Positions 1 through 19,541 of a DNA stretch of 25,626 bases are shown here, one piece after another. The DNA comes from Bdellovibrionota bacterium FG-2. GTDB lineage: Bacteria > Bdellovibrionota > UBA1018. The notes under the pieces were generated by a model. It saw nothing but the letters and a program-made list of their open reading frames with translations, did no database searches and was not told where the DNA came from. Position numbers and translations under genes: made by a program. The stretch lies in the NCBI GenBank assembly GCA_051382305.1, contig JBBCAV010000139.1, positions 1 through 25,626 on the forward strand. Direction: 5' to 3'. Position 1 is the stretch's first letter. Each line of letters begins with the position of its first letter.

Positions 1-18
1 ACATTGGGGTGGGGGGGG

Positions 19-699: not shown

Positions 700-733
700 A
701 AACATCTTACTCCACTTCACAATCCGAGACTAT

Positions 734-749
734 TGCATGGGGGGTGCCA
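734..749 (-). promoter_or_regulatory. Sigma-54 (-24/-12) promoter for the lipoprotein gene
   Basis: Minus strand reads TGGCAC-CCCCC-ATGCA. The GG-N10-GC spacing is exact, with one mismatch to TGGCAC-N5-TTGCW, in the intergenic gap just upstream of the gene. Confidence 0.65.
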
Positions 750-826
750 TATGTGACGCATAGCGTAAGTTATCGAAAATATAGCGAAACGGCGATAGGA
801 CGAGTCTCGAAGGCGTGAAAGGGTTG

Positions 827-3505: not shown

Positions 3506-3584
3506 AGTGAGCCAGTGATAGCAGTCTCAAAAATCATTTGGCGAGGAAAAAACCGGAAATAATTAATGACGCGGCATAAAGAAT

Positions 3585-3612
3585 TAAAGTGTAATCCGTT
3601 TTATACCGAACA
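3585..3612 (+). promoter_or_regulatory. Possible sigma-28 (FliA)-type promoter
   Basis: TAAA-N16-ACCGAACA versus consensus TAAA-N15-GCCGATAA, about 20 nt upstream of ATG 3633. Imperfect match. Confidence 0.3.
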
Positions 3613-3632
3613 AACAAATATAGAGGTGCGAG

Positions 3633-4163
3633 ATGGCAGCACAAGAAGATATTAACAAGATTATCAATGAGATCGAGGAACTTGAGGGTAAAATTGATTC
3701 GACGCATCAAGCTTCGAATCCAGAACCCCAAGGGTTTCATGACCCCGATGGGGTGCCAGATGGGGTGAATGAAGCTAGGCCTTCGAGCGAGCCAGAAAAG
3801 GCGCCAGCCGCGCTTTCTGTCGCGGCGGCCATTCAAGAACTTGAGAGTTATCAGGAAATTGAAGCACCCGAGGCCGCGCTAGAAAGCACGGGAGTGGATG
3901 ATTCTGGTCCCGATGCTGATGCCATTGCGCATCATGATCCTTCTCCGATTCATGAGATTGGGGCTGACCACAGTCCAAGTCCTTCGGATGAAGGGACTCT
4001 TTCGATGAAGCTGACGGGAAATATGACCTTGAGACTTCAATACGAGTGTTTTGGTCAGGAAATCACGGTCAGCTTCTCGGGGCAGGTGTTTCATGTACAG
4101 CTCTCTGATGGCACCGAGTTTAAGATTCCGGTTGCAAGGCGACATCTCCACAGGGTGGCTTAA
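3633..4163 (+). CDS. Hypothetical protein with an N-terminal helix, acidic Pro-rich disordered linker and small beta-rich C-terminal domain
   Basis: 176-aa ORF with RBS GAGGT before the ATG. First gene of a closely spaced plus-strand run. Confidence 0.75.
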   Translation: MAAQEDINKIINEIEELEGKIDSTHQASNPEPQGFHDPDGVPDGVNEARPSSEPEKAPAALSVAAAIQELESYQEIEAPEAALESTGVDDSGPDADAIAHHDPSPIHEIGADHSPSPSDEGTLSMKLTGNMTLRLQYECFGQEITVSFSGQVFHVQLSDGTEFKIPVARRHLHRVA

Positions 4164-4165
4164 AT

Positions 4166-4801
4166 CTGATCCGCATTACGGGTGGCGCATATAAAGGGCG
4201 TATGATCAAAGCCCCCAAAGGGGATTTGACCCGTCCAACGCAATCGCGATTACGGCAGGCGCTCTTTAATTCTCTTCAGAATGTGGTCGCTGGGGCGCGC
4301 GTTTTGGACTTGTTTTCGGGTTCTGGGGCGCTTTCATTTGAGGCGCTTTCTTGGGGAGCTGCAAGCGCAGTATTGGTCGATTCATCGCGCCAAGCCCAAA
4401 AGGTGTTGGAAGAGAATATCCAGGCTCTTCACCTCGAATCGCAGGTTAGTATTTTGGGGGGATCTGTTTTTGAGGTCCTGGGTCAGATTCTGGAGAAGGG
4501 TCCTTATGATTTGGTTTTTGCGGATCCCCCTTATGCAGGCGATTGGACGCAACGTCTTCTTTTGGCACTTCCGTGGGAAATGATTCTAGCTGAAGGTGGG
4601 ACTTTCTGTTTGGAGTGGGGTGTGCAACAATCCAAAACAAAAGCGCTCCCTGAGGAACTACCTTTCTTGTTTAAAATTCGGGAAAGAATTTACGGCGAGA
4701 GCGCTCTAACGAGTTATAGGAGAAAGAGCCCTCACACCCATGAAAGTCATCCACCAGAAGAACTTAAAGAAGAATCCGAAGAAGAATCCGAAGAAGAATA
4801 G
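4166..4801 (+). CDS. rsmD: 16S rRNA (guanine966-N2)-methyltransferase
   Basis: Motifs TRPT..RLRQALFN, VLDLFSGSGAL and DLVFADPPY. The conserved N-terminal IRITGGAYKGR lies upstream of ATG 4202, implying a start near CTG 4166. Confidence 0.92.
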   Translation: MIRITGGAYKGRMIKAPKGDLTRPTQSRLRQALFNSLQNVVAGARVLDLFSGSGALSFEALSWGAASAVLVDSSRQAQKVLEENIQALHLESQVSILGGSVFEVLGQILEKGPYDLVFADPPYAGDWTQRLLLALPWEMILAEGGTFCLEWGVQQSKTKALPEELPFLFKIRERIYGESALTSYRRKSPHTHESHPPEELKEESEEESEEE

Positions 4802-5306
4802 CCATCCCCCTTTCGACCCTCCTCAGCGCGCGATCTATCCAGGATCTTTTGATCCGATCACCAATGGTCATCTTGATATTCTTGATCGGGCCTTGGCGAT
4901 TTTCCCCGAAGTGGTAGTCGTGGTCGCAGGAACGGGGCACAAGAATCCCCTGTTTTCACCCGAAGAGCGCGTGGAATTGATACGGGAAGTGACCCGCGAT
5001 CGGCCGGGTGTTCGAGTGGATATCTGGTCGGGATTGATCATGGAGTATGCAAGGAAGCATCAAATCTCTGCTGTGATTCGCGGATTGAGAGCGGCCAGTG
5101 ATTTTGAGTACGAATTCATGATGGCAAGCATGAATAAGAATTTGAATCCCGAGGTCGAAACTCTCTTTATGATGACCTCGCAGGATCTTTATTTTGTCAG
5201 TTCTTCAATGATCAAAGAGCTGTTTCTGTATGGGGGGGATATTACTTCCTACGTTCCGCCTTTGGTGTTTAAGAGGCTTCAAGAGGCAAAAAGATGCAAA
5301 AAGTAG
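4740..5306 (+). CDS. coaD: Pantetheine-phosphate adenylyltransferase
   Basis: AIYPGSFDPITNGHLDI, IRGLRAASDFEYE, VSSSMIKE, in the usual position after rsmD. Confidence 0.96.
   Translation: MKVIHQKNLKKNPKKNPKKNSHPPFDPPQRAIYPGSFDPITNGHLDILDRALAIFPEVVVVVAGTGHKNPLFSPEERVELIREVTRDRPGVRVDIWSGLIMEYARKHQISAVIRGLRAASDFEYEFMMASMNKNLNPEVETLFMMTSQDLYFVSSSMIKELFLYGGDITSYVPPLVFKRLQEAKRCKK
4755..4802 (+). repeat. Imperfect 12-bp tandem repeat (4 units) in the rsmD/coaD overlap
   Basis: CAGAAGAACTTA AAGAAGAATCCG AAGAAGAATCCG AAGAAGAATAGC. Confidence 0.9.
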
Positions 5307-6520
5307 GGGCGCCGGCGCCTTCGCCGGCTCAATCAAGGATCTCTTCGCGTTTAGATGGAATTCACGAGAGTGCGACGCTCAGGCTTAATGCGCTCGTTCA
5401 GGCAATGAAAGCTCGCGGCGAGGATGTGATCAACTTGACCGCCGGCGAGCCTGACTTCGATGTCCCCGAGCCAGCCAAGGCGGCGGTGCTTGCTGGCGTT
5501 CGAGCAGGTCATTCAAAATATACCGCCGTGGCGGGGATTCCTGCGCTGAGGGCCGAGATTGCGCGCAAGACCACGTTGGTCCAGGGGGTGAGTTGGAATC
5601 CTTCTCATGTGATTGTCACAAATGGGGCAAAGCAAGCTCTCTACAATGCGTTTATTACGCTTCTTGAACCTGGCGATGAGGTCTTGATTCCTTCTCCTTA
5701 TTGGTTGAGCTATCCGGAGATGGTCAAACTCGCGGGGGGAATTCCGAAGTTTCTGCCCACTTTATTTGAGCAAGGGTTCAAACTCACTGCTGACAAGTTA
5801 CGCCAAGCATTGGGGCCTCGGGTGAAGGCGATCATTTTCAATTCCCCGAGCAACCCCACGGGAGCTCTGTATACCCGTGATGAGTTTCATGCCCTGGGGC
5901 AGATTCTTGAGGATTCGGGCGTTTGGATCATTAGCGATGAGATCTATGATCGCATTGTTTTTGCGCCTTCGAAATTTTGTTCTTTCTTAGCGGCAAATCC
6001 GGGACTTCAAGATCGCACGGTGACGATTAACGGAGTTTCCAAGAGTGCCGCAATGACTGGATGGCGCGTGGGGTGGTCTGTCGCGCCTCAAGATGTTACG
6101 GATGCCATGAGTATCGTGCAGGGGCAGTGCACCTCGGGCGTCAATGCTTTGGCGCAGGACGCATGCCTGGCAGCACTTGAAATCGCGGAGAGTGAATTTA
6201 TGTCGCAAGTGGAGAGATTTAAGGCAAGACGGGATCTTGTCTTGGAAATTTTGTCAAAAACCCGCAAACTAAGAGTTGTGGCCCCCCAGGGCGCGTTTTA
6301 TGTTTTTGCGAGTGTTGCGGAGTGTTTGAAGCCAGGGGAAGACGCGTCCCTGTTTGCGGAGCGGTTGTTGAGTGCTACGGGAGTGGCCGTGATGTCGGGC
6401 TCCCCTTTTGGTGAACCTGAATATATTCGACTGAGTTTTGCGACCGATGAGCAGACGCTAAAAATAGGATGTGAGCGATTGGTGAGGTTTCTAGAAACGG
6501 AGAGTGGGAGAATTGTTTAA
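5294..6520 (+). CDS. aspC: PLP-dependent class I/II aminotransferase (aspartate aminotransferase-like)
   Basis: GEPDF, NSPSNPTG, SDEIY and the PLP-lysine motif SKSAAMTGWRVG, plus YIRLSFA. Confidence 0.88.
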   Translation: MQKVGAPAPSPAQSRISSRLDGIHESATLRLNALVQAMKARGEDVINLTAGEPDFDVPEPAKAAVLAGVRAGHSKYTAVAGIPALRAEIARKTTLVQGVSWNPSHVIVTNGAKQALYNAFITLLEPGDEVLIPSPYWLSYPEMVKLAGGIPKFLPTLFEQGFKLTADKLRQALGPRVKAIIFNSPSNPTGALYTRDEFHALGQILEDSGVWIISDEIYDRIVFAPSKFCSFLAANPGLQDRTVTINGVSKSAAMTGWRVGWSVAPQDVTDAMSIVQGQCTSGVNALAQDACLAALEIAESEFMSQVERFKARRDLVLEILSKTRKLRVVAPQGAFYVFASVAECLKPGEDASLFAERLLSATGVAVMSGSPFGEPEYIRLSFATDEQTLKIGCERLVRFLETESGRIV

Positions 6521-7487
6521 GTTTCAACGCATCAGTATCGTACTTGGTTTCATTTTTGTTTTCTGTTTTGTTTCCTGTTCGGCTCCGCCCTACGATGGAG
6601 GAAACCCCAACGGTCGGGCTGCGATAATTGATTCGGCGAATATCTCGCTGTCTCGTGAGGAGTGCACGGCGGGCATTGCGATGTTAGAGGGTCTTTATGG
6701 GTCAGCCAATACGGGCAATGACGTGCGAATGCTCATGGCTTCGGCCTACGGGTGTGCAACCGGGATCAATTTTTTTGAATTTGTTGCCACCTTGGGCTCG
6801 AATGCAGGGGATCTGGCGGGGGCGGGGTTTTGGAAGCTCATGACAAAGCTTTTTCCCTCCACGACACGCGATAAAATTATGGAGGCCTCCCTCTTGGGAA
6901 CGGACGCACTTTTGTCTGCGGTGATGCCCGGCACGATTCTGATGGGGCAATCTTTGATTTTGAATGCAGGGGGAGCCAATCCGGGGTCTGCCCTTGCGAC
7001 GGATCGTATTGCTGAGAGCAATGTTTACCTGGTGCTGATGAGTATGGCGACGATCGGTTCTCTGCAAAGCCGAAACGGCGCGCCTGACCCCACGACTTTT
7101 CTTAAGACAAAAAGCTTGCCTTGGGGGACTGCGACGACGGTCGATAGTGATGGCTGCGCCTATGCCTCATCGATCGTTAATTTTGTAGATGCATTGGGAG
7201 CGACTTCTGGAACCGTAGAGGGATCGATTTCTAAGACGATCAAAACTCTTCATGATGCTTTTGCCACGGTGATTTACATGGCCTGCAGCACCGGATGCCT
7301 GGGGACTCCGGCGCTTTGGGGAGGGGTCTCTTCGGGGTGCACGGCTGCGGTGGACTGCGCTGATTGTCCTCTGGCTCTGAGAAACCGCACGTCCTGCACG
7401 GGGGAAGCAGATAATTTGCCTTCTTGCGCGGCCGCCGGGATCGTGAATTTTATCAACAATGCCCCCGTCGGGTGGCAGAGTTTATGA
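6504..7487 (+). CDS. Cys-rich putative lipoprotein
   Basis: Signal peptide with lipobox FVS-C, a TPR-like helical start and 10 Cys in the mature part. Stop overlaps the next ATG (ATGA at 7484-7487). Confidence 0.75.
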   Translation: MGELFKFQRISIVLGFIFVFCFVSCSAPPYDGGNPNGRAAIIDSANISLSREECTAGIAMLEGLYGSANTGNDVRMLMASAYGCATGINFFEFVATLGSNAGDLAGAGFWKLMTKLFPSTTRDKIMEASLLGTDALLSAVMPGTILMGQSLILNAGGANPGSALATDRIAESNVYLVLMSMATIGSLQSRNGAPDPTTFLKTKSLPWGTATTVDSDGCAYASSIVNFVDALGATSGTVEGSISKTIKTLHDAFATVIYMACSTGCLGTPALWGGVSSGCTAAVDCADCPLALRNRTSCTGEADNLPSCAAAGIVNFINNAPVGWQSL

Positions 7488-8572
7488 AAATATTTTTCGT
7501 GAGCTTTTTCGTTTTTGTGGGACTTTTGGTGACGCTGGGCTTTGAGCAGCCTAGTTTTGCGCTTTCTGAACTTCGCGAACTTTATCGGGGCCCGCGCGCG
7601 CAAGCGATGGGTAACGCTTTTGTGGCGGTGGCGGATGATGAACAGGCGATTTTTTACAATCCTGCAGGCCTTGCGGGAAACACGAAAACAAAAATCACCT
7701 ATCTTGCGGCGGATCTTGAGGCCTCTAACGATTTGATTTTTGGGGTGGGCGCCAATCTTGGGGCGTTTTCAAAACTCGGCTCCGATACGATCAATAACGT
7801 GATGGGCAAGGATATTTATGCCAGGGCAACGGTTGCTCCCAGTATTACGATTCCAGGTTTTGGTCTTGCGGTCTTAGTTGATGATCAAGCGGCGTTGTTT
7901 GCGAAGAATAAAGCACTTCCTCATATTACGCTGGGGTATCAAGCCACGAATGGAATTCAAGCGGGGTTTGGTTTTGCCTTAGGGGGAAAAAAGAGAAAAA
8001 GGCGGAGTGAGCTTCGTGTGGGCGCTGCGGGCAAAATGCTTTGGCGTCGTGGGGGCTATCATGAAATTCCCTTGATGGACATGTTCAAAATTAACGCCAA
8101 TACCTTGGGGGATATGACAGGCGGATATGAACGGGGATTTGGGGGAGACTTGGGGGCGCAGTACTTGTTTGATGTTAACCCGCATTTACTGCTGAGCTCT
8201 GGCCTGGCCTACACCGATATTTTGGACACGAAGTTTGGCGGAATCGCGGACCGACAGCCGAGTAATCTCTCTACGGGGATTGCTGCTACCTATCATTTTA
8301 AGCGAGCTTCCACGACCCTGGCCTATGATTATCGTCATATGTTGACGACCACAGATTCTCGCAAAAAGAGCCATTTAGGCTGGGAATTGTCGATTCCGCT
8401 CATAAGTGTTTATGCGGGTCTCAACCAGATGGCGTTTTGTTATGGGGCGACCCTTGATCTATTCCTTTTCAAAATCAGGGCGCTCTCTTATGCTGAGGAC
8501 ATGGCGGCGTTTGCTAATTTGGAATCGCAGCGTAGATATATGTTTCATATTGATTTTAGTTTGAGGCTTTAA
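7484..8572 (+). CDS. Outer-membrane beta-barrel, FadL/PorV/TraF-like family
   Basis: Signal peptide from ATG 7484, family N-terminal motif GPRAQAMGNAFVAVADDEQAIFYNPAGLA, alternating amphipathic strands, and C-terminal FHIDFSLRL. Confidence 0.8.
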   Translation: MKIFFVSFFVFVGLLVTLGFEQPSFALSELRELYRGPRAQAMGNAFVAVADDEQAIFYNPAGLAGNTKTKITYLAADLEASNDLIFGVGANLGAFSKLGSDTINNVMGKDIYARATVAPSITIPGFGLAVLVDDQAALFAKNKALPHITLGYQATNGIQAGFGFALGGKKRKRRSELRVGAAGKMLWRRGGYHEIPLMDMFKINANTLGDMTGGYERGFGGDLGAQYLFDVNPHLLLSSGLAYTDILDTKFGGIADRQPSNLSTGIAATYHFKRASTTLAYDYRHMLTTTDSRKKSHLGWELSIPLISVYAGLNQMAFCYGATLDLFLFKIRALSYAEDMAAFANLESQRRYMFHIDFSLRL

Positions 8573-8598
8573 CATTCACAATAAGGAGAACACCTAGC

Positions 8599-9915
8599 AT
8601 GCGTAAAGCGTTTATGCTCGACACCAATGTGCTGCTTTTTGATCCGCAGGCGATTAATAAATTTGGCAACAACGATATTGTGATTCCGATCGTCGTGTTC
8701 GAGGAGATTGACCGCTTTAAAAGGGATATGAGTGAAAACGGCCGCCATGCGCGACTCTTTTCGCGGATTATTGATGAAATGCGGGCCGATGGAGAATTGT
8801 CCAAAGGCGTGAAGCTTTCCAATGGCGGCTTGCTTTGGGTGGAGCTTGGCACTGGGCAGCCCATCTCGATGGATCTTCCGCTGGACAAAGCGGATAATCG
8901 GATGCTCTCGATTGCGATGGGCTTGAAAAAAGATCAGCCCAAACGTCCGGTCGTGTTTGTCACGAAAGACATTAATCTGCGGATCAAAGCTGATGCGCTT
9001 GGGATTACGGCAGTGGATTATGAGCCCTCAAGTGTTGAGCCTGACGATCTTTATTCGGGCGAAGCGATTCTTAATGTTGAGGCGAGTCTGGTGGATGAGT
9101 TTTATCAAAACAAACGTTTGGTCTATAAAGATACTCTCTTGCGGCCCAATCAATATGTGATTCTCAAGGACTCGGCTAACCCCAATCATACTGCGATGGG
9201 ACGGTTTTCGAAAGAACTGGATTGTCTGGTTCCGATCTTTAAGCCCGTTGAAGGATTGTGGGGGATTTTCCCTAAGAACGCAGAGCAAGCCTTTGCCATT
9301 GATGCGCTTTTAAACGACGAGATTAAATTGGTGAGTCTGGTTGGAAAGGCCGGGACCGGGAAAACCCTTTTGGCGATCGCTGCAGGTCTGGCCAAGACCG
9401 TGGATGAGGGCGTGTTTCACAGACTTTTAGTGTCCCGCCCCGTGTTTCCGTTGGGTAAGGATATTGGGTTTTTGCCGGGATCACTTGAAGAAAAGCTCAA
9501 TCCATGGATGCAGCCTATATATGACAACATTGACTTTTTGTTCGGCAACACCGGCGCCAAAGGCCGCCGTGGGGCAGGGAAGGGGTGTCAGGAATTGATC
9601 AATCAAGGGCTGCTGCAAATTGAGCCGCTGACTTACATTCGCGGACGATCGATTCCGCAACAGTATCTCATTGTCGATGAGTCCCAAAATCTCACGCCTC
9701 ATGAGATCAAAACCATCGTCACGCGGGCCGGGGATGACACGAAGATCGTGCTCACGGGGGATAGTTTTCAGATTGATAACCCTTACGTGGACTCCGCGAA
9801 TAACGGCTTGGTCTATCTCGTCGATCGGTTCAAAGACGAGGCGATTTCAGCCCATATTACGCTGACCAAGGGTGAGCGCTCGAAGCTCTCGGAGCTTGCG
9901 AGTAACTTGCTCTAG
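8599..9915 (+). CDS. PIN-PhoH family protein (PhoH2/YlaK-like RNase-ATPase)
   Basis: PIN motifs LDTNVLL and VTKDINLRIKA, Walker A GKAGTGKT, YIRGRS, DESQN, GDSFQID. RBS AAGGAG. Confidence 0.92.
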   Translation: MRKAFMLDTNVLLFDPQAINKFGNNDIVIPIVVFEEIDRFKRDMSENGRHARLFSRIIDEMRADGELSKGVKLSNGGLLWVELGTGQPISMDLPLDKADNRMLSIAMGLKKDQPKRPVVFVTKDINLRIKADALGITAVDYEPSSVEPDDLYSGEAILNVEASLVDEFYQNKRLVYKDTLLRPNQYVILKDSANPNHTAMGRFSKELDCLVPIFKPVEGLWGIFPKNAEQAFAIDALLNDEIKLVSLVGKAGTGKTLLAIAAGLAKTVDEGVFHRLLVSRPVFPLGKDIGFLPGSLEEKLNPWMQPIYDNIDFLFGNTGAKGRRGAGKGCQELINQGLLQIEPLTYIRGRSIPQQYLIVDESQNLTPHEIKTIVTRAGDDTKIVLTGDSFQIDNPYVDSANNGLVYLVDRFKDEAISAHITLTKGERSKLSELASNLL

Positions 9916-9925
9916 GCCGTTGGCT

Positions 9926-10252
9926 TTAGTCAGCGCGTTTTCTTAGTGGGTTTTTGAGATAGTCATCAAGCTCGCACTCCAAGTGCCTTCGGTAGGCGCG
10001 GGTGAGGAGCCTGAGTTCCCGGGTTTCGGCAGTGTCTTCGAGCGACTTGAAGAGGACTTTGCCACGAACCATCATCGAAGGCGTGAGCTCTCCGAGACGA
10101 GTACGTTCTTCTTGAAACCTGACCATTTCTTCAAGAAGTTGAAACTTGTCCATTCCAAGAACTCGGGCTTCATAAGCCGCGTCTTCATTGTGGGAGGCCT
10201 TGATGTTTTTAAGGGCCAAGATGGAAACAACATTTGATGTTTGGTTGCTCAT
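9926..10252 (-). CDS. Small helical hypothetical protein
   Basis: 108-aa ORF with protein-like composition, convergent on PIN-PhoH and preceded by a consensus sigma-54 site. Confidence 0.7.
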   Translation of the reverse strand: MSNQTSNVVSILALKNIKASHNEDAAYEARVLGMDKFQLLEEMVRFQEERTRLGELTPSMMVRGKVLFKSLEDTAETRELRLLTRAYRRHLECELDDYLKNPLRKRAD

Positions 10253-10267
10253 ACGGGAGGCGACTTA

Positions 10268-10283
10268 AGCAAGTGCGGTGCCA
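10268..10283 (-). promoter_or_regulatory. Sigma-54 (-24/-12) promoter
   Basis: Minus strand reads TGGCAC-CGCAC-TTGCT, a perfect TGGCAC-N5-TTGCW match, 15 nt before ATG 10252. Confidence 0.8.
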
Positions 10284-10394
10284 TCGCGGGAATCTTTGAA
10301 CTGACGGGATTTTCCTGAATGATACCGTGCGTGGTGTCATGGTGCGCCTGCAGAAGAAGTGAGCAGAGTGTGTGACGGGCAGACAGTGGCAGGG

Positions 10395-10937
10395 CTACTC
10401 AAGCCAATTTTGGCTTAGGAGTTTCTCATCGGCTCTTAAAAGCCCGGATCCCTCAAGATAGCTCCTCATCTTTATATTGCAGGCGACAATTTTCTCCCGC
10501 GCGCCTTCAAACGGAAAACTATCCAGATATTGCTTAATGTCGAAATGATAAATACGGGGATGTTTTTTGATGTCATAAATAGGGAGCAGCCAGTAGTGCA
10601 CATTGCTCCCTAGCTTCGCTCTTTCTTCGTAGTACAGGTGGATGTGCTCAATTCCTAACGTTTCCCTCATGCCTTTTCTGACCTCCTGAAGAATGAGGAA
10701 AAGACGCAAATGAGTGAGTCGATCCATTTGATCAAGGGATTTGAAATAGGAGGTGGGCGATACAATATAGAATCCCGGAACGGGATGGGAGGAGTCCTGT
10801 CGGACGCATAGACCCTGGTTTTTATAGATAGGGTGCATACTCTCATCGAGGGTGTTTTCGTGTTGTTCGATAAAGAGGGGGCGGGGCGTTGGAGGTTCAG
10901 GAATTTCATCTGCAGAAGAAACGTCGATGTATTTCAT
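10395..10937 (-). CDS. HIT-like nucleotide hydrolase with a degenerate histidine triad
   Basis: PIY...VRQD..HPVPGFYIV and R..MRETLGI...YEE...NVHYWLLP follow the HIT-family pattern. The triad position reads NxHxW. Starts 3 nt after the argS stop. Confidence 0.6.
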   Translation of the reverse strand: MKYIDVSSADEIPEPPTPRPLFIEQHENTLDESMHPIYKNQGLCVRQDSSHPVPGFYIVSPTSYFKSLDQMDRLTHLRLFLILQEVRKGMRETLGIEHIHLYYEERAKLGSNVHYWLLPIYDIKKHPRIYHFDIKQYLDSFPFEGAREKIVACNIKMRSYLEGSGLLRADEKLLSQNWLE

Positions 10938-10940
10938 AAT

Positions 10941-12686
10941 TTACAGGCGGTTAGGACTCGGAATTCCCAAGATCGCTAATCCTTCTTTGAGGGTTGCCGC
11001 CGTCAACTCAACCAATTTGAGGCGGGTATTTTTTTGAGCATTGGACGAAGCCGTCTTGATTGGACACTCTTTGTAGAATCGATTGAACGTTTTGCTGAGG
11101 TCAAAGAGATAGGAGCAAAGTACCGAGGGGCGGTACTCCTTGCGCGCACTGGCTACGGCATCAGTAAATCTTTCAATCATGAGAGCGAGTTCATGATCAA
11201 AGGGCGTCGCAAATTCAAGGGGCGTATCTTCAGGATCCATTGGGACTTTTTGCAAAACACCACGACAGCGCGCATGGACATACTGCAGGTAAGGTCCGGT
11301 GTCTCCTTCGAGTTGGATCCATTCATCCAAAACAAACCGAATGATACGATTGGAGTCCACCTTTAGGAATCCGTATTTCAACGCCCCCAGCGCGATATCC
11401 CGAGCGGTCGCATCGATTTCGGACTGAGCCCAATCACCCTGGTGGACATTTAAATAGCGCTCTTTAATCGTTTGCTCCATCATCCGCGCAAGAACCTCAA
11501 GCCGAAATCCCGTACGACCTCGCGAGCTACAAGGCTCGCCCTTTTCATCTGTGACAGTTTCATAGGAGAGATGTAGGGAATCGTCTGCACTTCGCAAACC
11601 GATGAGTTCAGCTGTCTTGAAAAGCTGCTTAAAATGGAGCGTTTGACGAACATCGACGACCAGAATTGAAAGCATGACTTCGGGATTCTCAAATTTCCGT
11701 TTGAGGAGTTCAAGGTCCTTGGTCAAATACAGTGTTGTTCCGTTTGATTTTAAAAACATGGCAAAGCCAAGTCCGAATGCCGAAAGATCTGCGCCGATGG
11801 CGCCGTCACTCTTGATGAGTTTGCCTTCTTCAAAGTTTTTGAGGACAATCTCGCGGGACGGGGTATTGCATTCGCTCTCGAAGTACCAAACATCAAACTC
11901 GATTCCGAGCCAGTTCAGAATTTCGCGCATGAGCGAAAGCGAGGCTTCTCGGGTTTTCTGGTAGAGCGGGAAAAAAGAACCGCCGCCTTGCTCCAGCTCG
12001 TGAAGGATCGTTCCCATTTCGGCTTTAAAGGTCGCTTCATCCGGCGTATTGGCTTGGCTTTTTAAAAAGGCGTCTGCCTCGCCATACATATTTCCCAACC
12101 ATTCCGCGAGGTCTTTATCCGGGATCTCGGTTGCCTTAAAACGCTGAATGTACCACAGAACTTTAGCGATGTGGGTACCCATATCGCCCGGATAGATCGC
12201 ACGAACAACCGGGTTGCCGGAGGCTTCAACAATGCGGGCAATGCAATCGCCAAAAACGATGTTTCGGAGATGGCCGACATGGTAGGCTTTGTGCGTGTTG
12301 AGTTGAGAATACTCGATGATCACTTTTTTTGCGTCGACGGGGATGGGCGGCAGAAACGGCCCATTCTTGAGTTTGGTAAGTTGAACTGCCGTGAGGTGGC
12401 TGAGATCAGACACAAAATTTACATACCCAGCGGCTGCTTCGATTTTAGGAAAAAGATCGGTTTTTAAGATCTGAGCTGTCAGCTGAGCTGCGATCTGTTG
12501 GGGGGCTCTACGCAGAATCTTGGAAAGGGAATGACAGGGAAAAGCGACATGCCCGAGTTCCGTATTGGGCGGGTAAGTCAAAAGTCCCAACAGCGGAGTT
12601 AAGGCTGTATCATCCAAATTGAAAGAGGTCTTCAGTCCCTGAGTGAGCAGAATTTCCGCTTGTGCCTTTAAATAACTTTGAACCAT
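10941..12686 (-). CDS. argS: Arginine--tRNA ligase, divergent and possibly a second copy
   Basis: IEYSQLNTHKAYHVGHLRN (HIGH region), KSNGTTLYLTKDL, GDTGPYLQYVHAR and a DALR anticodon domain (FNRFY...RLKL...GLAILGI). Confidence 0.92.
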   Translation of the reverse strand: MVQSYLKAQAEILLTQGLKTSFNLDDTALTPLLGLLTYPPNTELGHVAFPCHSLSKILRRAPQQIAAQLTAQILKTDLFPKIEAAAGYVNFVSDLSHLTAVQLTKLKNGPFLPPIPVDAKKVIIEYSQLNTHKAYHVGHLRNIVFGDCIARIVEASGNPVVRAIYPGDMGTHIAKVLWYIQRFKATEIPDKDLAEWLGNMYGEADAFLKSQANTPDEATFKAEMGTILHELEQGGGSFFPLYQKTREASLSLMREILNWLGIEFDVWYFESECNTPSREIVLKNFEEGKLIKSDGAIGADLSAFGLGFAMFLKSNGTTLYLTKDLELLKRKFENPEVMLSILVVDVRQTLHFKQLFKTAELIGLRSADDSLHLSYETVTDEKGEPCSSRGRTGFRLEVLARMMEQTIKERYLNVHQGDWAQSEIDATARDIALGALKYGFLKVDSNRIIRFVLDEWIQLEGDTGPYLQYVHARCRGVLQKVPMDPEDTPLEFATPFDHELALMIERFTDAVASARKEYRPSVLCSYLFDLSKTFNRFYKECPIKTASSNAQKNTRLKLVELTAATLKEGLAILGIPSPNRL

Positions 12687-12689
12687 TTT

Positions 12690-13661
12690 TCAATTTCCTT
12701 TCAAACTTGCTATAGGATTTATACTGCCCGAAGCGAAGGCCGTTTTAAAGTGATTCATAAAAAATATTCCGAACGTCAGAGCGCCCAAAAAACAAAATCC
12801 ACTGAGAAGCAGATAAGTTGACGAATACCCTTGGTGGTCGATCGAGAGACCGACCGCAGGTCCGCAAAGTGCGGCAAAAGCACGCACACATACGCTTGCA
12901 GTAGAGTTTACCGTCGCCCGTAAGTGACCTGGAATTTTTGAATTGAGCATATCCTGCATTAAGATCGAGTTAAGGGCACGGCTGGCTGGAAAAATGAGCG
13001 CCAGGGCGGCCACTGCAGGGGAGGCGATACAGCCCATGAGGAAATATCCCAAGATGGGCAAGCAAACGACTCCAATCATCGTCCGATAGGTCCCTAGCCT
13101 GACTGCAATCTTAGAGGCGTTCTTGCCCACCATCGCGCCTGTGAGACTGATTGCTGCCCAAAGAATGCCGAAAAGCCCCTTGGACACTCCGATGTGTTGC
13201 CAGTGACCCTGAAAAGACCAGACTGCAGCGTAAGTCGTGAAGCTTACGAACATAAAGAACGGCAGAAGAAATGCCGTTCCTGTATCTTTATTGAAAAGTA
13301 GTCCGAAGACGCTTTTGAAATGGGGACTTCCCTTCTGGGCTCCTGTCGCTTTTCGCTTGGGCTCTATGAGAGATAAAGCAATAAAAAAGGGAACCCATCC
13401 AAAGACTGCATTCAAGGCAGCCGGCAGGGAGAGTGAAACGGTAGCAAGGAGTCCGCCCAAAACTGCGGCAACGGTTTCCCCCGCTTGGGTATAAAAGAAT
13501 TTTTTTGCCAAAATCTCCCGGAAAAATCCTTGGCGGTTTTCATTCCTCTCCTCAGCTTCAAACGAATCATAGATCATGGCGACGTCGCATCCCGAGGAGA
13601 AGCTCACAGCAAGGGCTGAGAGAATCTCAAAGACGGCAAAGGCTGCGCGGGCGAAGATTTT
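12690..13661 (-). pseudogene. MFS transporter lacking its N-terminal helices
   Basis: The frame is open to a TAA at 13664-13662 and begins at FAVFEILSALAVSFSSGCDVAMIYDS, a TM4-type MFS motif. The C-terminal IPGHLRATVNS motif is intact. About 320 aa versus about 400 for a full MFS. Confidence 0.7.
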
Positions 13662-13667
13662 TTAAAA

Positions 13668-14152
13668 GTGATTGCGCAGGATCTTTTAGTTAAGGGCGGA
13701 CAAGTAGAGGCGCCCGCCTATTATATGGCAAATCTCGTGCCGCTTCATATTGGGGCAATCACGCCGCGGACGCAGCGGCTCACGGTTGGCGCCAACCTAG
13801 AAAACCCAAAGTGGAATCACGAACCCAAAGATCGCAGCGCGTGCTACAAAGCGGCCCGAGAAAAAGAAGAGGCGGCGGAGAAACTGCTTGTGGACAAAAT
13901 GCATTGTAACGCTGAAACGGCTAAAATCGTCCAAGCGCTAATTCCCCGTTTCGGTGAGGCGACCAAACAGGAGTTAACACAGCTTGATCGAAGCGGTACC
14001 ACCCCAGAGCATCTAAAGCGCGCGCCTCAAGCAAATATCTCGAAGAACTCCAAGCGACGCAAGAAAAGTTTCTTGCGTCCTATAAAAAGCAAGGATGCAC
14101 AAAGAACGCACCTCAGAGCGCGCCCAATAGTGGGGCGGGAGTGGCTAGATGA
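13668..14152 (+). pseudogene. Fragment of a hypothetical gene, probably 5'-truncated and frameshifted
   Basis: No RBS or promoter space. An alternative frame open over 13988-14152 gives SSKYLEELQATQEKFLASYKKQGC...GAGVAR* and ends in an ATGA overlap with the next gene. Confidence 0.5.
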
Positions 14153-14745
14153 ATTACTTTAGGATGATAATCATTGCCGCCTTTTTTTGTTTAGAGCAGG
14201 CGAGTAGTTCTTTGGCCGCAGATCAATGTGTCGGTAAAGAGTTCGATGAATATATTTTGAAAACATCAGGAATTGCTTTTAGTACTTTATGTGAGGCGGT
14301 TCTGAATCATGCTCAAGATAAACAGCAAATGAGTCAAACCATTGGAAAAGCCCGAAGTCTAGGGTTTGCCGGCGCCAAGGCAGCTTTACTTCGCGAAATC
14401 TCAACCGTCTCGACCCGTTGCAAGAATGAAGTCGTGACGAAAGACCGAGAAGATTGTGAGAAGGAGTTGGAAATTTTTCTGGGAGATTTCAAAAGACTTG
14501 AGAAGTTGGATAGCACTTGGGGATCGAAACTGTCGTTGAATGATCGTCTTTATTTGTCAACGGTGACTCTCTATTATTCTCTCCTGAAACCTGCACTTTC
14601 AGAGCGGCATTCTAATTATCTTTTACGGTGTCAACTGAAGTACACTGAGCAATGTGCGGGAATATTGAATGACCTAGCGCTCAATGGCCAGCAAGTTCTG
14701 CAGCTCGTGCGGGTGAGTCGTATCAATGCTGACATGACCCAGTAG
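14149..14745 (+). CDS. Secreted helical hypothetical protein
   Basis: 198 aa with a Sec-type signal (…SSSLA/ADQC) and 6 Cys in the mature part. Confidence 0.65.
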   Translation: MNYFRMIIIAAFFCLEQASSSLAADQCVGKEFDEYILKTSGIAFSTLCEAVLNHAQDKQQMSQTIGKARSLGFAGAKAALLREISTVSTRCKNEVVTKDREDCEKELEIFLGDFKRLEKLDSTWGSKLSLNDRLYLSTVTLYYSLLKPALSERHSNYLLRCQLKYTEQCAGILNDLALNGQQVLQLVRVSRINADMTQ

Positions 14746-14857
14746 GCGAAGCGCCCTTGTGTGTTGCGTTATACTGTGTTTCGCTTACTCGCATCTCACG
14801 CATAAATCTCCCATCCCCCTTGTACCCGCAGTCTTTTCGCGGCATAACTGGAGGTCT

Positions 14858-17626
14858 ATGAAAAGTCTTCCGAAAAGGCCTTTGGACGCCTCCTATACCC
14901 CTGCCGGTTTTGAAACCGAAATCTACAACTTCTGGAATGAAAACGGATGCTTCCACGCCCAAGACGTCAATACCCCAGGGCAAAAGAGTTTCGCCATGGT
15001 GATCCCACCTCCTAACGTCACGGGTGTCCTTCATATGGGACATGCGCTGACGAACACGATTCAGGACATTCTGGTCCGGTGGCATCGGATGAAGGGCGAC
15101 AATACGCTTTGGCTCCCCGGCACCGACCACGCTGGGATTGCGACTCAAGCTCAGGTTGAAAAGCAAATCGCCAAAGAGGGCAAGGGTCCCACGGGTAAGC
15201 CGCTTACTCGTCACGATATGGGTCGCAAGGCGTTCTTAGAGCGCACCTGGAAATGGAAAGAAGAGCACGGCTCAATCATCACAAACCAGCTCAAGCGTCT
15301 CGGCTCGTCTCTTGATTGGCCGCGAGAGCGTTTCACGATGGATGAGGGTTTATCATCTGCCGTTCGTGAAGTGTTTGTGCGCCTCTATGAAGAAGGGCTG
15401 ATCTACCGAGGCGAACGCATCATTAATTGGTGCACTCGTTGTCGGACGGCGCTCTCGGATCTTGAAGTGATTCCGACGGATCGTAAGGGGAATTTCTGGC
15501 ATCTCATTTATAAAATCGTCGAAAAAGATGGCGCCCCCGTCAAGTCCGCAGACGGATCGCAGGTCCAGCTTGTGATTGCCACGACTCGTCCCGAAACCCT
15601 TCTTGGAGATACGGCTGTAGCGGTTCATCCAGAAGATGAGCGCTATACTTCTCTTCATGGAAAATTCGCCGTATTGCCGCTGTTGGGGCGTATGATTCCG
15701 GTGATCACCGATGAGTATGTGGATCGGGAGTTTGGAAGTGGCGCCCTTAAGATCACGCCGGCCCATGATTTCAACGACTATGAACTAGGAAAAAAACATA
15801 GTCTCCCCATGATCTCGGTCATGGGAAAAGACGGTGTGATCACGTCTGACGGCGGGCCGTACGCGGGTCTCAAATTCAAAGACGCGCGCGAAAAGGTGGT
15901 GGAGGATCTCAAGACGCAAGCGCTCCTCGTTAAAGTCGAAGATCACGCTCACAAAATCGGTCTTTGTCAGCGCTGCGAACATGTGGCGGAGCCTGTGATT
16001 TCAAAGCAGTGGTTCGTGAAAATTGCGCCACTTGCGAAGCCCGCGATTGAGGCCGTCGAGACCGGGAAAACCGTTTTCAGTCCCAAGAGCTGGGAAAAAA
16101 CCTACTTTGAGTGGATGTACAATATCCGCGATTGGTGTATCTCGCGCCAGCTTTGGTGGGGGCATCAGATTCCGGCTTGGTACTGCAGTAAGTGCGAGGC
16201 GATCACCGTTTCGCGCGAAACGCCGGGCAAGTGCACAAACTGTAGCGCTACAGGCTTGATTCAAGACGAAGACGTTTTGGATACGTGGTTTAGTTCGGCG
16301 CTTTGGCCCTTTTCTACATTGGGTTGGCCGGAGAAGACAGATACGCTCAAAACCTTTTACCCGACTTCAATTCTTGAAACCGGTTTTGACATTATTTTCT
16401 TCTGGGTTGCGCGGATGATGATGATGGGCATCCACTTCATGGGGGAAGTGCCCTTTCACAAGATTTACCTCCACGCCATGGTTCGGGATGAAAAGGGCGA
16501 GAAGATGTCCAAATCCAAGGGCAATGTGATTGATCCCTTGGTCTTAATCGATCAACACGGGGCAGACGCCTTGCGCTTCACTTTGGCCGTGATGGCGGGC
16601 CAGGGACGCGACATTAAGCTCTCCGTAGATCGGGTCGAGGGTTATCGCGCCTTTTGTAACAAGCTATGGAATGCCGTGAAGTTTTTCCATTTCCAAATGG
16701 AAAACGCTGCCTCTGTAACGGCGCCGGACGAGGGTGTAGCGGCGTGGGTAGCGAAATATAGTGCCGAACTTTTGCCTCAAAATCGTTGGATACTTTCGCG
16801 TTTTCAAGATGCGATTATCAAGGTCGAAAAAGGGCTTGAAGGGTTTGAACTCAACGAGTCGGCGCAAGCTTTATATGATTTTACGTGGCGTGAAATGTGT
16901 GATTGGTACATCGAATTTTCGAAGCTTCCGCTCCGCGAAGCAGGCCCCTCTCGTAACGAAACTATGTGGGTCTTGCACTTTGTGCTTGAGCAGCTTTTGA
17001 AACTCATGCATCCGTTTATGCCGTTTGTGACTGAAGAACTTTGGCAAAGTTTGCCTTGGAGGGCAGTCCGCCAGGACAGATCCCAACCCCTCACGCTGAT
17101 GCTCGAATCCTTTCCCGTTTTTGATCCAGCTTTTAAGGACGAAAAAATGGAAGCCCAGATCGAAGGCGTGAAGCACGTGATCGAAGCGGTGCGCAACTTC
17201 CGTGGGGAAAACAACATTTCGCCAAAAATCGAGTTTCCAGTGCGCTATACTCGGGCCTCTAAAGAAGCGCTCGAGCTTTTTGCGAGATATCGAGGCGATA
17301 TCTTGGCGCTCGCGCGTATTCAAGGACTTGAGGAGGACAAAGAGAACTCCGTCGCTGGTGTTTCGATTATTCCCCTGGCTTTGCCGTCCGTGGAGTTTCA
17401 CATCAGTCTCAAAGGCTTAGTCGACTTTGAGGAAGAAGCGAAGCGCCTGAGAAAAGAAATTGAAAAAGTAGATGCAGATATTGGCCATGTCTCGCGAAAA
17501 TTGGCGCAAGAGTCGTTCATCGCTAAGGCGCCTAAAGAGCTAATTGAGAAAGAGCGAAAGAAGATTGCCGATTTTGAGTCCAAGAAGGTCGAACTAGGAG
17601 CTGCGCTTAAGCGGCTTGAGGTTTAA
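14858..17626 (+). CDS. valS: Valine--tRNA ligase
   Basis: PPPNVTGVLHMGH, ATTRPET, DWCISRQLWWGH, KMSKSKGN and a C-terminal coiled coil. RBS GGAGG precedes ATG 14858. Confidence 0.98.
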   Translation: MKSLPKRPLDASYTPAGFETEIYNFWNENGCFHAQDVNTPGQKSFAMVIPPPNVTGVLHMGHALTNTIQDILVRWHRMKGDNTLWLPGTDHAGIATQAQVEKQIAKEGKGPTGKPLTRHDMGRKAFLERTWKWKEEHGSIITNQLKRLGSSLDWPRERFTMDEGLSSAVREVFVRLYEEGLIYRGERIINWCTRCRTALSDLEVIPTDRKGNFWHLIYKIVEKDGAPVKSADGSQVQLVIATTRPETLLGDTAVAVHPEDERYTSLHGKFAVLPLLGRMIPVITDEYVDREFGSGALKITPAHDFNDYELGKKHSLPMISVMGKDGVITSDGGPYAGLKFKDAREKVVEDLKTQALLVKVEDHAHKIGLCQRCEHVAEPVISKQWFVKIAPLAKPAIEAVETGKTVFSPKSWEKTYFEWMYNIRDWCISRQLWWGHQIPAWYCSKCEAITVSRETPGKCTNCSATGLIQDEDVLDTWFSSALWPFSTLGWPEKTDTLKTFYPTSILETGFDIIFFWVARMMMMGIHFMGEVPFHKIYLHAMVRDEKGEKMSKSKGNVIDPLVLIDQHGADALRFTLAVMAGQGRDIKLSVDRVEGYRAFCNKLWNAVKFFHFQMENAASVTAPDEGVAAWVAKYSAELLPQNRWILSRFQDAIIKVEKGLEGFELNESAQALYDFTWREMCDWYIEFSKLPLREAGPSRNETMWVLHFVLEQLLKLMHPFMPFVTEELWQSLPWRAVRQDRSQPLTLMLESFPVFDPAFKDEKMEAQIEGVKHVIEAVRNFRGENNISPKIEFPVRYTRASKEALELFARYRGDILALARIQGLEEDKENSVAGVSIIPLALPSVEFHISLKGLVDFEEEAKRLRKEIEKVDADIGHVSRKLAQESFIAKAPKELIEKERKKIADFESKKVELGAALKRLEV

Positions 17627-17631
17627 TCGTC

Positions 17632-18519
17632 TTGATCAACTCGTCTGCGAAATCTTTTTTGGTGACGGGCGCTACAGGATTCTTAGGGAGCCACTTGGTG
17701 GCGCGTCTATTGAGTGAGGGAATGTCGGTGGTCGTACTTAAGCGCCGGCAATCAGACTTGCGAAGGCTGGCTGCTGTTGAAGCTAACCTCGTTTTTTATA
17801 ATTGGGAAGAAACTCGTCTTTCTGATATTTTTGCTCGGCATTCTTTTGAGGCGGTCCTTCATTGTGCAACCGATTACGGCCGAAAAAACGCGTTCCCGTT
17901 ACGCCTCTTGGAAGCGAATCTCCTTTTGCCTTTGGAGTTGCTCGAGCTTGCCGCTCGTGCTCAGGTTCCTTCTTTTATTAATACGGATACAATTTTGGAC
18001 AAAGGGGTGAGTCATTATTCGCTTTCAAAGAAGCAATTCTTGGATTGGCTCAAGAATTATTCCTCCGAGATTCGGTGCGTGAACGTGGCGTTGGAGCATT
18101 TTTACGGCCCGGGCGATGATGAAACTAAATTTGTTTCAGCGATGACAAAGCGTATTTTTCGGGGGGAGCAGATTGCCCTCACTGCGGGTGAGCAGAAACG
18201 GGATTTTATTTATTTTGAAGATGTTGTAGAGGCCTTTTCGGTGATTTGGGGTCACGTCAGGAGTGAAGCTAAGGGCTTTTCACATTTTGAGGTCGGAAGC
18301 GGCGTGAGTACTAAAATTCGTGCACTGCTGGAGTTGATCGTCAAACTTGGGGGAGTGCAAAAAACTTCTTTGGATTTTGGTGCCCTTCCTTATCGGGCAA
18401 ATGAGGTCATGGAGTCGCAAGTGAATCTCTCGGCGTTACTTGCTTTGGGGTGGCGGCCCAAAGTGTCTTTGGAGGAGGGGTTAGGGAGAATGCTTAAGCA
18501 AGAAGGGATGATCGCATGA
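17632..18519 (+). CDS. NAD-dependent epimerase/reductase, CDP-paratose (or abequose) synthase-like
   Basis: GATGFLG, YSLSK, EHFYGPGD, GEQKRDFIY and FGALPYR. Coupled by ATGA to the tyvelose epimerase gene, as prt-tyv are in enterobacteria. Confidence 0.75.
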   Translation: MINSSAKSFLVTGATGFLGSHLVARLLSEGMSVVVLKRRQSDLRRLAAVEANLVFYNWEETRLSDIFARHSFEAVLHCATDYGRKNAFPLRLLEANLLLPLELLELAARAQVPSFINTDTILDKGVSHYSLSKKQFLDWLKNYSSEIRCVNVALEHFYGPGDDETKFVSAMTKRIFRGEQIALTAGEQKRDFIYFEDVVEAFSVIWGHVRSEAKGFSHFEVGSGVSTKIRALLELIVKLGGVQKTSLDFGALPYRANEVMESQVNLSALLALGWRPKVSLEEGLGRMLKQEGMIA

Positions 18520-19541
18520 AAGTTTTTATCACGGGTGGGTGTGGGTTTGTCGGGGCGAATCTTGCGTCAGAAGTTTTTAGGCGTAAAGAGGACTGTGTGG
18601 TCGTCGATAACCTTTCGCGCTTTGGGAGTGCGGAGAACCTTAATTGGCTGAAGTCTCTACCCTGTGCAGGGAGATTTAATTTTCATCACCTCGATACGCG
18701 GAGCTTCTCCGACATTGATTTGATCATCCAAAAAGAAAAGCCCGATGTGATTTTTCATTTGGCGGGTCAAGTTGCGATGACGACTTCGATCGCGAATCCT
18801 AGACTTGACTTCGAAACGAATGTGATGGGGACCCACAACCTTCTCGAAGCGGTCCGAAAACATACGCCGAAAGCGACCGTGGTTTATTCTTCGACTAACA
18901 AGGTATACGGCGATCTCGAGGATTATGGCTACGAAGAGAAACTCCTTCGGTATGAGGCAAAAGGTTTTCCGAAAGGTTTTGATGAATCCGTGGGGCTCAA
19001 TTTTCGGTCCCCTTATGGTTGTTCAAAGGGGGCCGCGGATCAGTATATGCTCGATTATGCCCGCATTTTTGGGCTCAATACGGTCGTCTTTCGTCACTCT
19101 TCGATTTTTGGCGGTCGTCAGTTTAGCACTTTTGATCAGGGTTGGATTGGGTGGTTTGTCACCAAGGCCCTTGAGGCGAAAGGGGGGGGCAAAGATTGCT
19201 TTACCATCTCAGGAAACGGCAAACAGGTGCGCGATGTGCTTTTTGCCTCAGACTTGATTGATTGCTACTTCGGTGCGGCAAGCGCAATCGAAAAGGTCCG
19301 TGGGCAGGCTTTCAATATTGGCGGCGGAATGGAAAACAGTCTGTCGTTGCTGGAACTTTTTTCGTTTTTGGAGTCAAAGCTCGGAGTGAAGCTCAATTAT
19401 GAGAAACTCCCTTGGCGCCAAAGTGATCAAAAAGTTTTTGTGGCAGATATTGGTAAGGCAAAGAGGCTCTTCGGTTGGGTGCCAAAGGTTTCGAAAGAAA
19501 CGGGTCTAGAAAAAATGATTGATTGGGTGGCGCGTTTATAG
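18516..19541 (+). CDS. rfbE: CDP-paratose 2-epimerase (CDP-tyvelose epimerase)
   Basis: ITGGCGFVG, FHLAGQVAMTTSI, YSSTNKVYGDL and SPYGCSKGAADQYMLDYARIFGLNTVVFRHSS..GGRQF...DQGW are characteristic of Tyv/RfbE. Confidence 0.88.
   Translation: MKVFITGGCGFVGANLASEVFRRKEDCVVVDNLSRFGSAENLNWLKSLPCAGRFNFHHLDTRSFSDIDLIIQKEKPDVIFHLAGQVAMTTSIANPRLDFETNVMGTHNLLEAVRKHTPKATVVYSSTNKVYGDLEDYGYEEKLLRYEAKGFPKGFDESVGLNFRSPYGCSKGAADQYMLDYARIFGLNTVVFRHSSIFGGRQFSTFDQGWIGWFVTKALEAKGGGKDCFTISGNGKQVRDVLFASDLIDCYFGAASAIEKVRGQAFNIGGGMENSLSLLELFSFLESKLGVKLNYEKLPWRQSDQKVFVADIGKAKRLFGWVPKVSKETGLEKMIDWVARL

Follow-up and report, generated by a model that had tools for sequence, protein, structure and literature searches.

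A second arginyl-tRNA synthetase gene with damaged neighbours in a strain-specific segment of a Bdellovibrionota genome

The locus and its strain-specific segment

The window analysed here, a 25,626-nucleotide stretch of DNA from Bdellovibrionota bacterium FG-2 (contig JBBCAV010000139.1 of GenBank assembly GCA_051382305.1), carries a second arginyl-tRNA synthetase (ArgRS) gene, argS2, flanked by a divergent HIT-fold gene and part of an MFS transporter gene (Table 1). The initial annotation had noted three co-oriented genes with 3-nt spacing, and the open reading frame (ORF) coordinates bear this out: all three genes lie on the minus strand, and both spacers are exactly 3 nt. It had interpreted this trio as an operon of an MFS exporter, a divergent ArgRS and a HIT hydrolase, that is, as a candidate resistance or biosynthesis module for an arginyl-adenylate-type compound. 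The synthetase gene looks intact from its sequence, both neighbours are damaged, and the combination does not recur at any locus surveyed.

The trio lies in DNA that is variable between related strains. The DNA of a same-genus genome (G001; the genome of the window is G000) matches the window at positions 3-10387 and 14801-19532 with 75-86% nucleotide identity, and nothing in it matches 10388-14800. The trio and two small ORFs on the plus strand therefore form a 4.4-kb strain-specific segment. The G001 counterparts of the two window flanks reside on separate contigs among other neighbours. At least 13 kb of genes precede the G001 valS (L030, G001:C159, 1277-13820); all but the last of these are without a counterpart in G000, and the last has only weak matches there (34-36% identity). 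Next to the G001 version of the 108-amino-acid (aa) gene (L055, G001:C307, 4214-6115) comes a 633-aa gene, after which lie genes found on the G000 contig C84. On this comparison, the spot between the 108-aa gene and valS is a variable region in the genus.

The composition of the segment is typical of the genome, with a tetranucleotide distance of 0.136 against 0.156 +/- 0.021 for random 4.4-kb pieces, and so it gives no help on the segment's origin. No tRNA lies within the window, no integrase-like family appears among the window ORFs scanned, and the segment ends lack flanking direct repeats, showing just short pairs at chance level. A contaminant contig as the source of the locus was considered and ruled out by the native flanks, the single-copy valS and a separately assembled contig that crosses the junctions.

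Table 1. Features of the window and gene sets of the HIT-fold family at other loci. Window positions are given without a prefix.
Feature	Coordinates	Strand	Evidence or remark
Conserved hypothetical gene, 108 aa, native flank	9926..10252	-	92.6% identity to G001; adjoins PhoH/PIN gene
Strain-specific 4.4-kb segment (trio and two small ORFs)	10388..14800		G001 DNA matches on both sides only
Divergent HIT-fold gene, probably inactive; 180 aa, 23 residues deleted in frame	10395..10937	-	AlphaFold2 (AF2) model, PDB matches, alignment
argS2, intact-looking second arginyl-tRNA synthetase, 581 aa	10941..12686	-	TIGR00456, three Pfam domains, motifs
3' fragment of MFS transporter gene (pseudogene or remnant)	12690..13661	-	Homologue alignment, partial Pfam MFS_1 match
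ORF of 164 aa, no recognised family, possibly not a gene	13668..14162	+	No match in Pfam, NCBIfam or PADLOC; absent from G001
ORF of 198 aa, hydrophobic, signal-peptide-like N-terminus, no recognised family	14149..14745	+	No match in Pfam, NCBIfam or PADLOC; absent from G001
valS, native flank, genome's only valS	14858..17626	+	TIGR00422, 1095.8 bits
HIT-like/radical-SAM set	L033:3258-7427		
HIT-like/radical-SAM set	L036:7875-9359		
HIT-like/radical-SAM set	L039:7830-9883		
HIT-like/radical-SAM set	L041:7995-9556		
HIT-like/radical-SAM set	L042:867-2402		
HIT-like/radical-SAM set	L043:3355-6262		
HIT-like/radical-SAM set	L044:4154-6986		
HIT-like/radical-SAM set	L045:6632-9541		

The genes that border the segment are native to the lineage. 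valS is 88-90% identical to that of G001 and 67-72% identical to the valS genes of six further genera in the family, and a genome-wide search finds it to be the sole TIGR00422 match over the cut-off. Its longest ORF opens at a GTG at 14759, and conservation with G001 begins at 14801; the ATG at 14858 is the most likely start, which fits both the conserved N-terminus and the extent of G001 conservation. On the other side, the 108-aa gene stands next to a fusion of a PIN domain and a PhoH-like ATPase (8599-9915), which is highly conserved in the genus (95.7% identity to G001). The trio had been placed between a small hypothetical gene and valS. The 108-aa gene does occupy one side, but two plus-strand ORFs separate the trio from valS, and the observation as a whole is partly confirmed. 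The 164-aa ORF abuts the point at which the MFS fragment is truncated.

Two arginyl-tRNA synthetase types in one genome

Profile searches confirm the identification of the middle gene as an ArgRS. argS2 scores 339 bits against TIGR00456 (cut-off 261.65; 338.6 bits in the genome search) and exceeds the cut-offs of three Pfam families, namely tRNA-synt_1d (PF00750, 111.8 bits), DALR_1 (PF05746, 96.1 bits) and Arg_tRNA_synt_N (PF03485, 40.9 bits). Its product is thus a three-domain ArgRS with an N-terminal tRNA-binding domain, a class I catalytic domain and a DALR anticodon-binding domain. The roles of the HIGH signature and of the arginine-binding Tyr and Asp are known from the yeast ArgRS structure; argS2 carries HVGH and the Y..D of LYLTKD, like 27 other aligned rows of its type. 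It differs at five of the 125 columns that are at least 95% conserved in its clade, and other members differ at up to six. The motif alignment omits G018, for which the longest ORF, the one chosen, gave a 3.3-long branch in the tree. argS2 probably aminoacylates tRNA-Arg, as suggested by orthologues with no other argS beside them in the genome.

The synthetase had also been described as an extra, divergent copy, and the rest of the genome agrees. A second full-length gene, argS1, is found on contig C280 (C280:12893-14680; L002:1477-3267) and encodes 596 aa. argS1 is 82.6% identical over its full length to the sole argS of G001, argS2 is 26.5% identical to the same gene, and the two copies share 26% identity with each other. 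By these identities, argS1 is the lineage's own ArgRS and argS2 is a true second copy.

The two genes belong to deep types with distinct motifs. The argS1 type pairs a degenerate HIGH (NSYH, QIYH, NIYH, LIGH or MAGH) with a canonical KMSTRKG, whereas the argS2 type pairs HVGH with (C/F)SSR. Near the arginine site, argS1 has GDWGKQ and GAEQ where argS2 has GDMGTH and DVRQ. Despite its degenerate HIGH, the argS1 type serves most genomes of the order as their only ArgRS.

Carriers of the argS2 type are found widely across the phylum and are scarce in its own family. The proteins nearest to argS2 are 73% and then 66% identical, the latter from a metagenome-assembled genome (MAG) assigned by NCBI to Bdellovibrionales, and many matches follow at 43-53%, including Pseudobdellovibrio, Silvanigrella, Fluviispira and Pigmentibacter. 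In the phylum sample, 175 of 401 genomes carry the type (E<=1e-80); it is present in 100/100 and 48/53 members of two families and in 2/57 of the family to which G000 belongs. In all nine carriers checked, among them G038, G030, G040, G273, G230, G279, G204 and G369, it is the only argS found. A survey of the order detects an argS (E<=1e-60) in 107 of 116 genomes, with a single match in 105. The two genomes with two matches are G000, which has both types, and G354, which has two copies. The G354 copies (C125:541-2283 and C150:2116-3843) score like argS1-type rows, at 472 and 462 bits, and could be a real duplication or the product of two strains in one bin.

Phylogeny places argS2 among family members without fixing its origin. 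In a quick maximum-likelihood tree, argS2 groups with the database protein P0014, then with G273 and then with G230, all of its own family, with a Shimodaira-Hasegawa-like approximate likelihood ratio support of 100. Its identities to the copies of G273, G230 and G279 (66, 54 and 52%) fall in parallel with those of valS (72, 58 and 58%). In the best valS tree the argS2 carriers do not come together, but a clade that joins them to G001 is not rejected by the approximately unbiased (AU) test on the valS data (p 0.147 and 0.133). The argS2 neighbours in G273 and G230 are not syntenic with the window and map to scattered G000 contigs. Replacement in place was considered and set aside, as those neighbours match neither the argS1 locus nor the window. 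The argS2 and valS data are compatible with transfer as well as with long residence followed by differential loss. Of the checks that the initial annotation had proposed, the search for another argS supports an extra copy, and the tree, in which argS2 clusters with orthologues serving as the only ArgRS of their genomes, counts against a dedicated module.

Damaged neighbours and a rare HIT-fold family

The gene annotated as an MFS exporter proves to be a 3' fragment. It matches the Pfam MFS_1 profile with 36.9 bits (cut-off 33.4) over profile positions 130-344 of 347 only. Full-length homologues (P0134-P0139, 400-420 aa, 34-41% identity) begin to align at their residues 97-112, and the aligned range in the window runs from 13640-13643 down to 12786-12813. 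Position 13661 is a stop-to-stop boundary, with the stop codon at 13662-13664 and the first possible start, a GTG, at 13607; similarity to MFS proteins extends upstream of that start codon as far as the stop. The fragment lacks about 100 N-terminal residues, corresponding to the first three transmembrane helices and motif A (DLxGRK), and falls short of 12 helices. Even P0138, which is also short (314 aa), starts before the DLxGRK motif. Neither the window nor the genome contains a match to the missing 5' part at comparable identity. A displaced 5' part in another frame or contig was also sought; the sole other match, on contig C28, is a separate, distant MFS gene with 22-27% identity.

The 180-aa protein annotated as a HIT hydrolase has no family match in Pfam, NCBIfam or PADLOC, and PF01230, the Pfam HIT family, is matched neither by it nor by two full-length relatives. 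Structure prediction nevertheless points to a HIT fold. The AF2 models of the window protein and of a full-length homologue have predicted local distance difference test (pLDDT) scores of 84.8 and 92.7, respectively, and the top PDB matches listed for both models are all HIT proteins. Foldseek comparisons with HIT structures give E values of 1e-4 to 7e-6 and target-normalised template modelling (TM) scores of 0.55-0.74. The atlas neighbours of the protein are HIT families that carry PF01230, and among the distant profile matches only P0228 and P0237 hit Pfam HIT.

The catalytic motif is altered, and part of the N-terminal region is missing. In place of HxHxHxx, the protein reads N-V-H-Y-W-L-L-P; the first and third histidines of the triad are replaced (N..W), and only the middle histidine is invariant in the family. 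In canonical HIT enzymes, the middle histidine is the nucleophile. The window copy alone lacks a conserved 23-residue segment that is present in all 11 close homologues and that forms beta-strands 19-25 and 31-37 in the model of the full-length homologue; at the DNA level, the loss is clean and in frame. About 60 additional C-terminal residues are helical. Compared with the HIT superfamily, which includes the HinT and MccH phosphoramidases, FHIT and the Ap4A phosphorylase Rv2613c, the window protein has the predicted fold and the middle histidine in common and differs in its missing Pfam HIT match, its N..W replacements, its C-terminal helices and its two lost N-terminal strands. MccH hydrolyses microcin C-like adenylates. 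The HIT part of the initial annotation thus stands as far as the predicted fold is concerned and not for a canonical hydrolase, and the window gene is probably inactive.

Members of this HIT-fold family are rare. Twelve matching proteins, the window's included, are found among 5.8 billion, and a profile search over 1.84 billion representative proteins returns 180 of them (E<=0.001). The gene occurs in two of the 401 phylum-sample genomes (G000 and G272) and in one of the 116 genomes of the order, G000 itself. Because of an internal TAA stop, the G272 match (L049, G272:C65, 573-947) is likewise a probable pseudogene.

At other loci, the family keeps different company. The survey comprises 14 loci from other genomes and metagenomes, with flanks of up to 8 kb; for the Pilimelia locus L034 (77% GC), ORF calls are unreliable, and it is scored merely as having no argS and no radical SAM seen. 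At nine of the 14 loci a radical-SAM gene lies near the HIT-like gene or, in L036, is fused to it. Seven of these assignments are confirmed by Pfam, and those of L044 and of the two L040 fragments rest on BLAST clustering only. Database members of the family are fused to radical SAM or to an NT5C-type nucleotidase, and four of the 14 loci have a phosphoenolpyruvate (PEP)-utilising-type kinase. A C28 stretch in G000 itself (C28:3080-5102, on a 5.1-kb contig) holds a homologue of this kinase directly followed by the distant MFS gene mentioned above, the same kinds of gene that accompany the family at other loci.

The radical-SAM partners, of about 310 aa, have viperin as their best named match. 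The arrangement recalls the prokaryotic viperins (pVips), which have accessory nucleotide enzymes, but the scores of 49-69 bits are far below the viperin cut-off of 180. The radical-SAM partner has no match in G000 at E<=1e-8, and the likeness to viperins concerns the HIT-like family and not the window. The family and its viperin-like partners look like an undescribed nucleotide-modifying gene set or pathway, and no description of the pairing was found in the literature searched.

The three genes of the trio do not co-occur elsewhere in the loci surveyed, an outcome that the initial annotation had itself named as refuting the module. None of the 14 HIT-like loci has an argS, and no MFS or HIT-like gene lies beside argS2-type genes at 16 loci (flanks of about 1.5 kb) or in the 14-kb and 9.4-kb stretches around the argS2 genes of G273 and G230. 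The expectation that argS, MFS and biosynthetic genes would recur near HIT homologues is likewise not borne out; an MFS gene is seen at one of the 14 loci, L033, in a biosynthetic-looking cluster, and is only distantly like that of the window (24% identity). The window contains neither biosynthetic genes nor tRNA-dependent enzymes. With an exporter that is truncated and a HIT-like gene that is damaged, the trio is not supported as a module.

Interpretation of the locus

The account that fits best, and that we regard as probable, is that the variable segment holds an intact ArgRS, either redundant or alternate, at a two-synthetase stage before replacement, with two decayed neighbours. The 4.4-kb segment carries a second ArgRS of a deep type that is the sole ArgRS in many relatives in the phylum, order and family. 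argS2 would be expressed and active, charging tRNA-Arg alongside argS1, and the genome would have been caught in a two-synthetase state preceding the replacement of one type by the other, a replacement that would already be complete in several relatives. The MFS gene, with its 5' third lost, and the HIT-fold gene, with two beta-strands lost, would be decayed passengers, and the trio as a unit would have no present function.

Several observations weigh against this account. The 3-nt spacers on both sides of argS2 resemble a compacted operon, and such packing suggests that in some genome the trio once functioned as a unit. The recurrence survey did not extend to the short contigs that carry the closest relatives, at 73% identity for argS2 and at 67% and 62% for the HIT-like gene; the proteins concerned are P0014 and P0016 on the argS2 side and P0002, P0003 and P0004 on the HIT-like side. 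Residue 315 of argS2 (window 11742-11744) is N where KSDG has D, a residue that the other 38 rows, from both types, all share; full activity is consequently not assured, and the substitution could weaken the enzyme. A promoter scan for the trio yields three promoter-like sites against 4.1 expected by chance, none of them convincing. The genome is a MAG of 433 contigs that is 85% complete with 4.4% contamination.

The operon-like packing, the single feature that still speaks for a former operon, also counts in favour of a different and unlikely reading, in which the trio is the relic of an immunity or self-resistance cassette. A donor operon would have combined an exporter with an ArgRS for target replacement and with a nucleotide hydrolase or transferase of HIT fold, aimed at an ArgRS-directed compound, possibly a nucleoside-type aminoacyl-adenylate mimic, and the ArgRS alone may still protect. 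The second argS copy in a strain-specific segment is in line with it, as are the motif differences between argS1 and argS2 near the arginine site and the MFS gene in the biosynthetic-looking cluster at L033. There is also precedent: one preprint describes tiarins as natural ArgRS inhibitors, cluster-encoded resistant ArgRS copies that confer immunity to them, and deep ArgRS types that differ in arginine pocket and inhibitor sensitivity (bioRxiv 10.64898/2025.12.02.691738). Tiarin (trifolitoxin-like) clusters such as that of Legionella birminghamensis likewise have a second ArgRS of a different deep type with other arginine-site residues, but argS2, unlike theirs, has no adjacent tfx-like biosynthetic genes, precursor, GNAT or MATE. 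G000 has five YcaO-domain matches (C328:9388-9765, C133:3961-4383, C307:17093-17437, C271:478-816 and C216:34901-35125), which suggest several clusters of the type that makes ribosomally synthesised and post-translationally modified peptides (RiPPs); none of these five genes has a Met-started RQGC or xQGC precursor next to it. RQGC strings elsewhere look like chance, and a link to tiarins was rejected. The cassette reading must also contend with the lack of biosynthetic genes in the window, the damage to exporter and HIT-like gene, the absence of trio recurrence in the loci and genomes searched, and an argS2 that is not set apart from its sole-copy housekeeping orthologues. The HIT-like family, for its part, is without two triad histidines, and its recurrent partner is a viperin-like radical SAM and not a synthetase. 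A more specific form, in which the trio is the remnant of an undescribed immunity operon against a nucleoside-type ArgRS inhibitor, with a rare HIT-fold member and a surviving ArgRS that still protects, is rather a long shot. If it were true, the ArgRS would shield a probably predatory host from ArgRS-directed compounds of its neighbours or prey, and the HIT-fold family of this operon would elsewhere work with viperin-like radical-SAM enzymes on modified nucleotides.

The remaining alternatives concern the origin of argS2, its reality and its use. There is a small chance that argS2 is an old resident, in which case argS1 and argS2 coexisted in an ancestor within the family and were lost differentially, argS1 in G273 and G230 and argS2 in G001, where an ancestral segment would have been deleted; only in origin does this differ from the preferred account. 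The single clade of own-family argS2 sequences, the tracking of valS identities by argS2 identities, the typical composition of the segment and the AU results for a clade of carriers with G001 all agree with such a history. The argS2 type is present in 3/58 sampled genomes of the family, however, and both types are present in 1/116 genomes of the order, so that many independent losses would be needed; the carriers are moreover ungrouped in the best valS tree, and the neighbours of argS2 are not syntenic in G273 and G230. A binning or assembly artefact, with an extra ArgRS from another organism or a chimeric contig, is very improbable. The fragmentation and contamination of the MAG would allow for it, as would the location of the matching G001 flanks on different contigs with other neighbours. 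Against it, both flanks of the segment are 88-96% identical to G001 at the protein level, the contig holds the only valS of the genome, and the composition is typical. In addition, a Logan contig of 16,448 bases from a separate assembly, which may derive from the same reads, spans positions 9000-16000 unbroken, with no difference or joint; it covers all junctions, and the arrangement is consequently not an artefact of one assembler. A role of argS2 in feeding Arg-tRNA or Arg-AMP into tRNA-dependent biosynthesis is scarcely credible; the initial annotation had similarly raised a supply of activated arginine to a pathway. Synthetase paralogues do serve in this way in some clusters, valanimycin being an example cited in the tiarin preprint (bioRxiv 10.64898/2025.12.02.691738), but the window has no tRNA-dependent enzyme or biosynthetic gene for argS2 to feed, and argS2 keeps the full housekeeping architecture of orthologues that are sole ArgRSs. 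The interpretation first proposed for the locus is, as a whole, partly supported.

An alternate ArgRS at a stage before replacement would belong with known phenomena. Genomes with two synthetases of the same specificity are a known kind of case, and so is the displacement of one type by a foreign one. As in other cases of xenologous or duplicated synthetases, two full-length ArgRSs with 26% identity share a genome, and one type is the lineage's own while the other is the sole ArgRS in relatives. Unlike those cases, the extra copy studied here occupies a short strain-specific stretch together with decayed neighbours. No prior description of this locus was found in the literature searched, and a term search of review PMC9437257 finds no ArgRS duplication.

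The co-occurrence of both deep ArgRS types, which is rare in the order, makes argS1 and argS2 a natural pair in which to study what drives the replacement of one synthetase type by another and to compare sensitivity to arginine analogues or to ArgRS-targeting tiarins. The locus fails as an antibiotic-resistance or biosynthesis module and should not be mined as one. A more promising lead lies outside the window, in the rare HIT-fold family that is found with viperin-like radical SAM proteins, PEP-utilising-type kinases and nucleotidases. Its repeated partners and fusions point to an unstudied nucleotide-modifying pathway.

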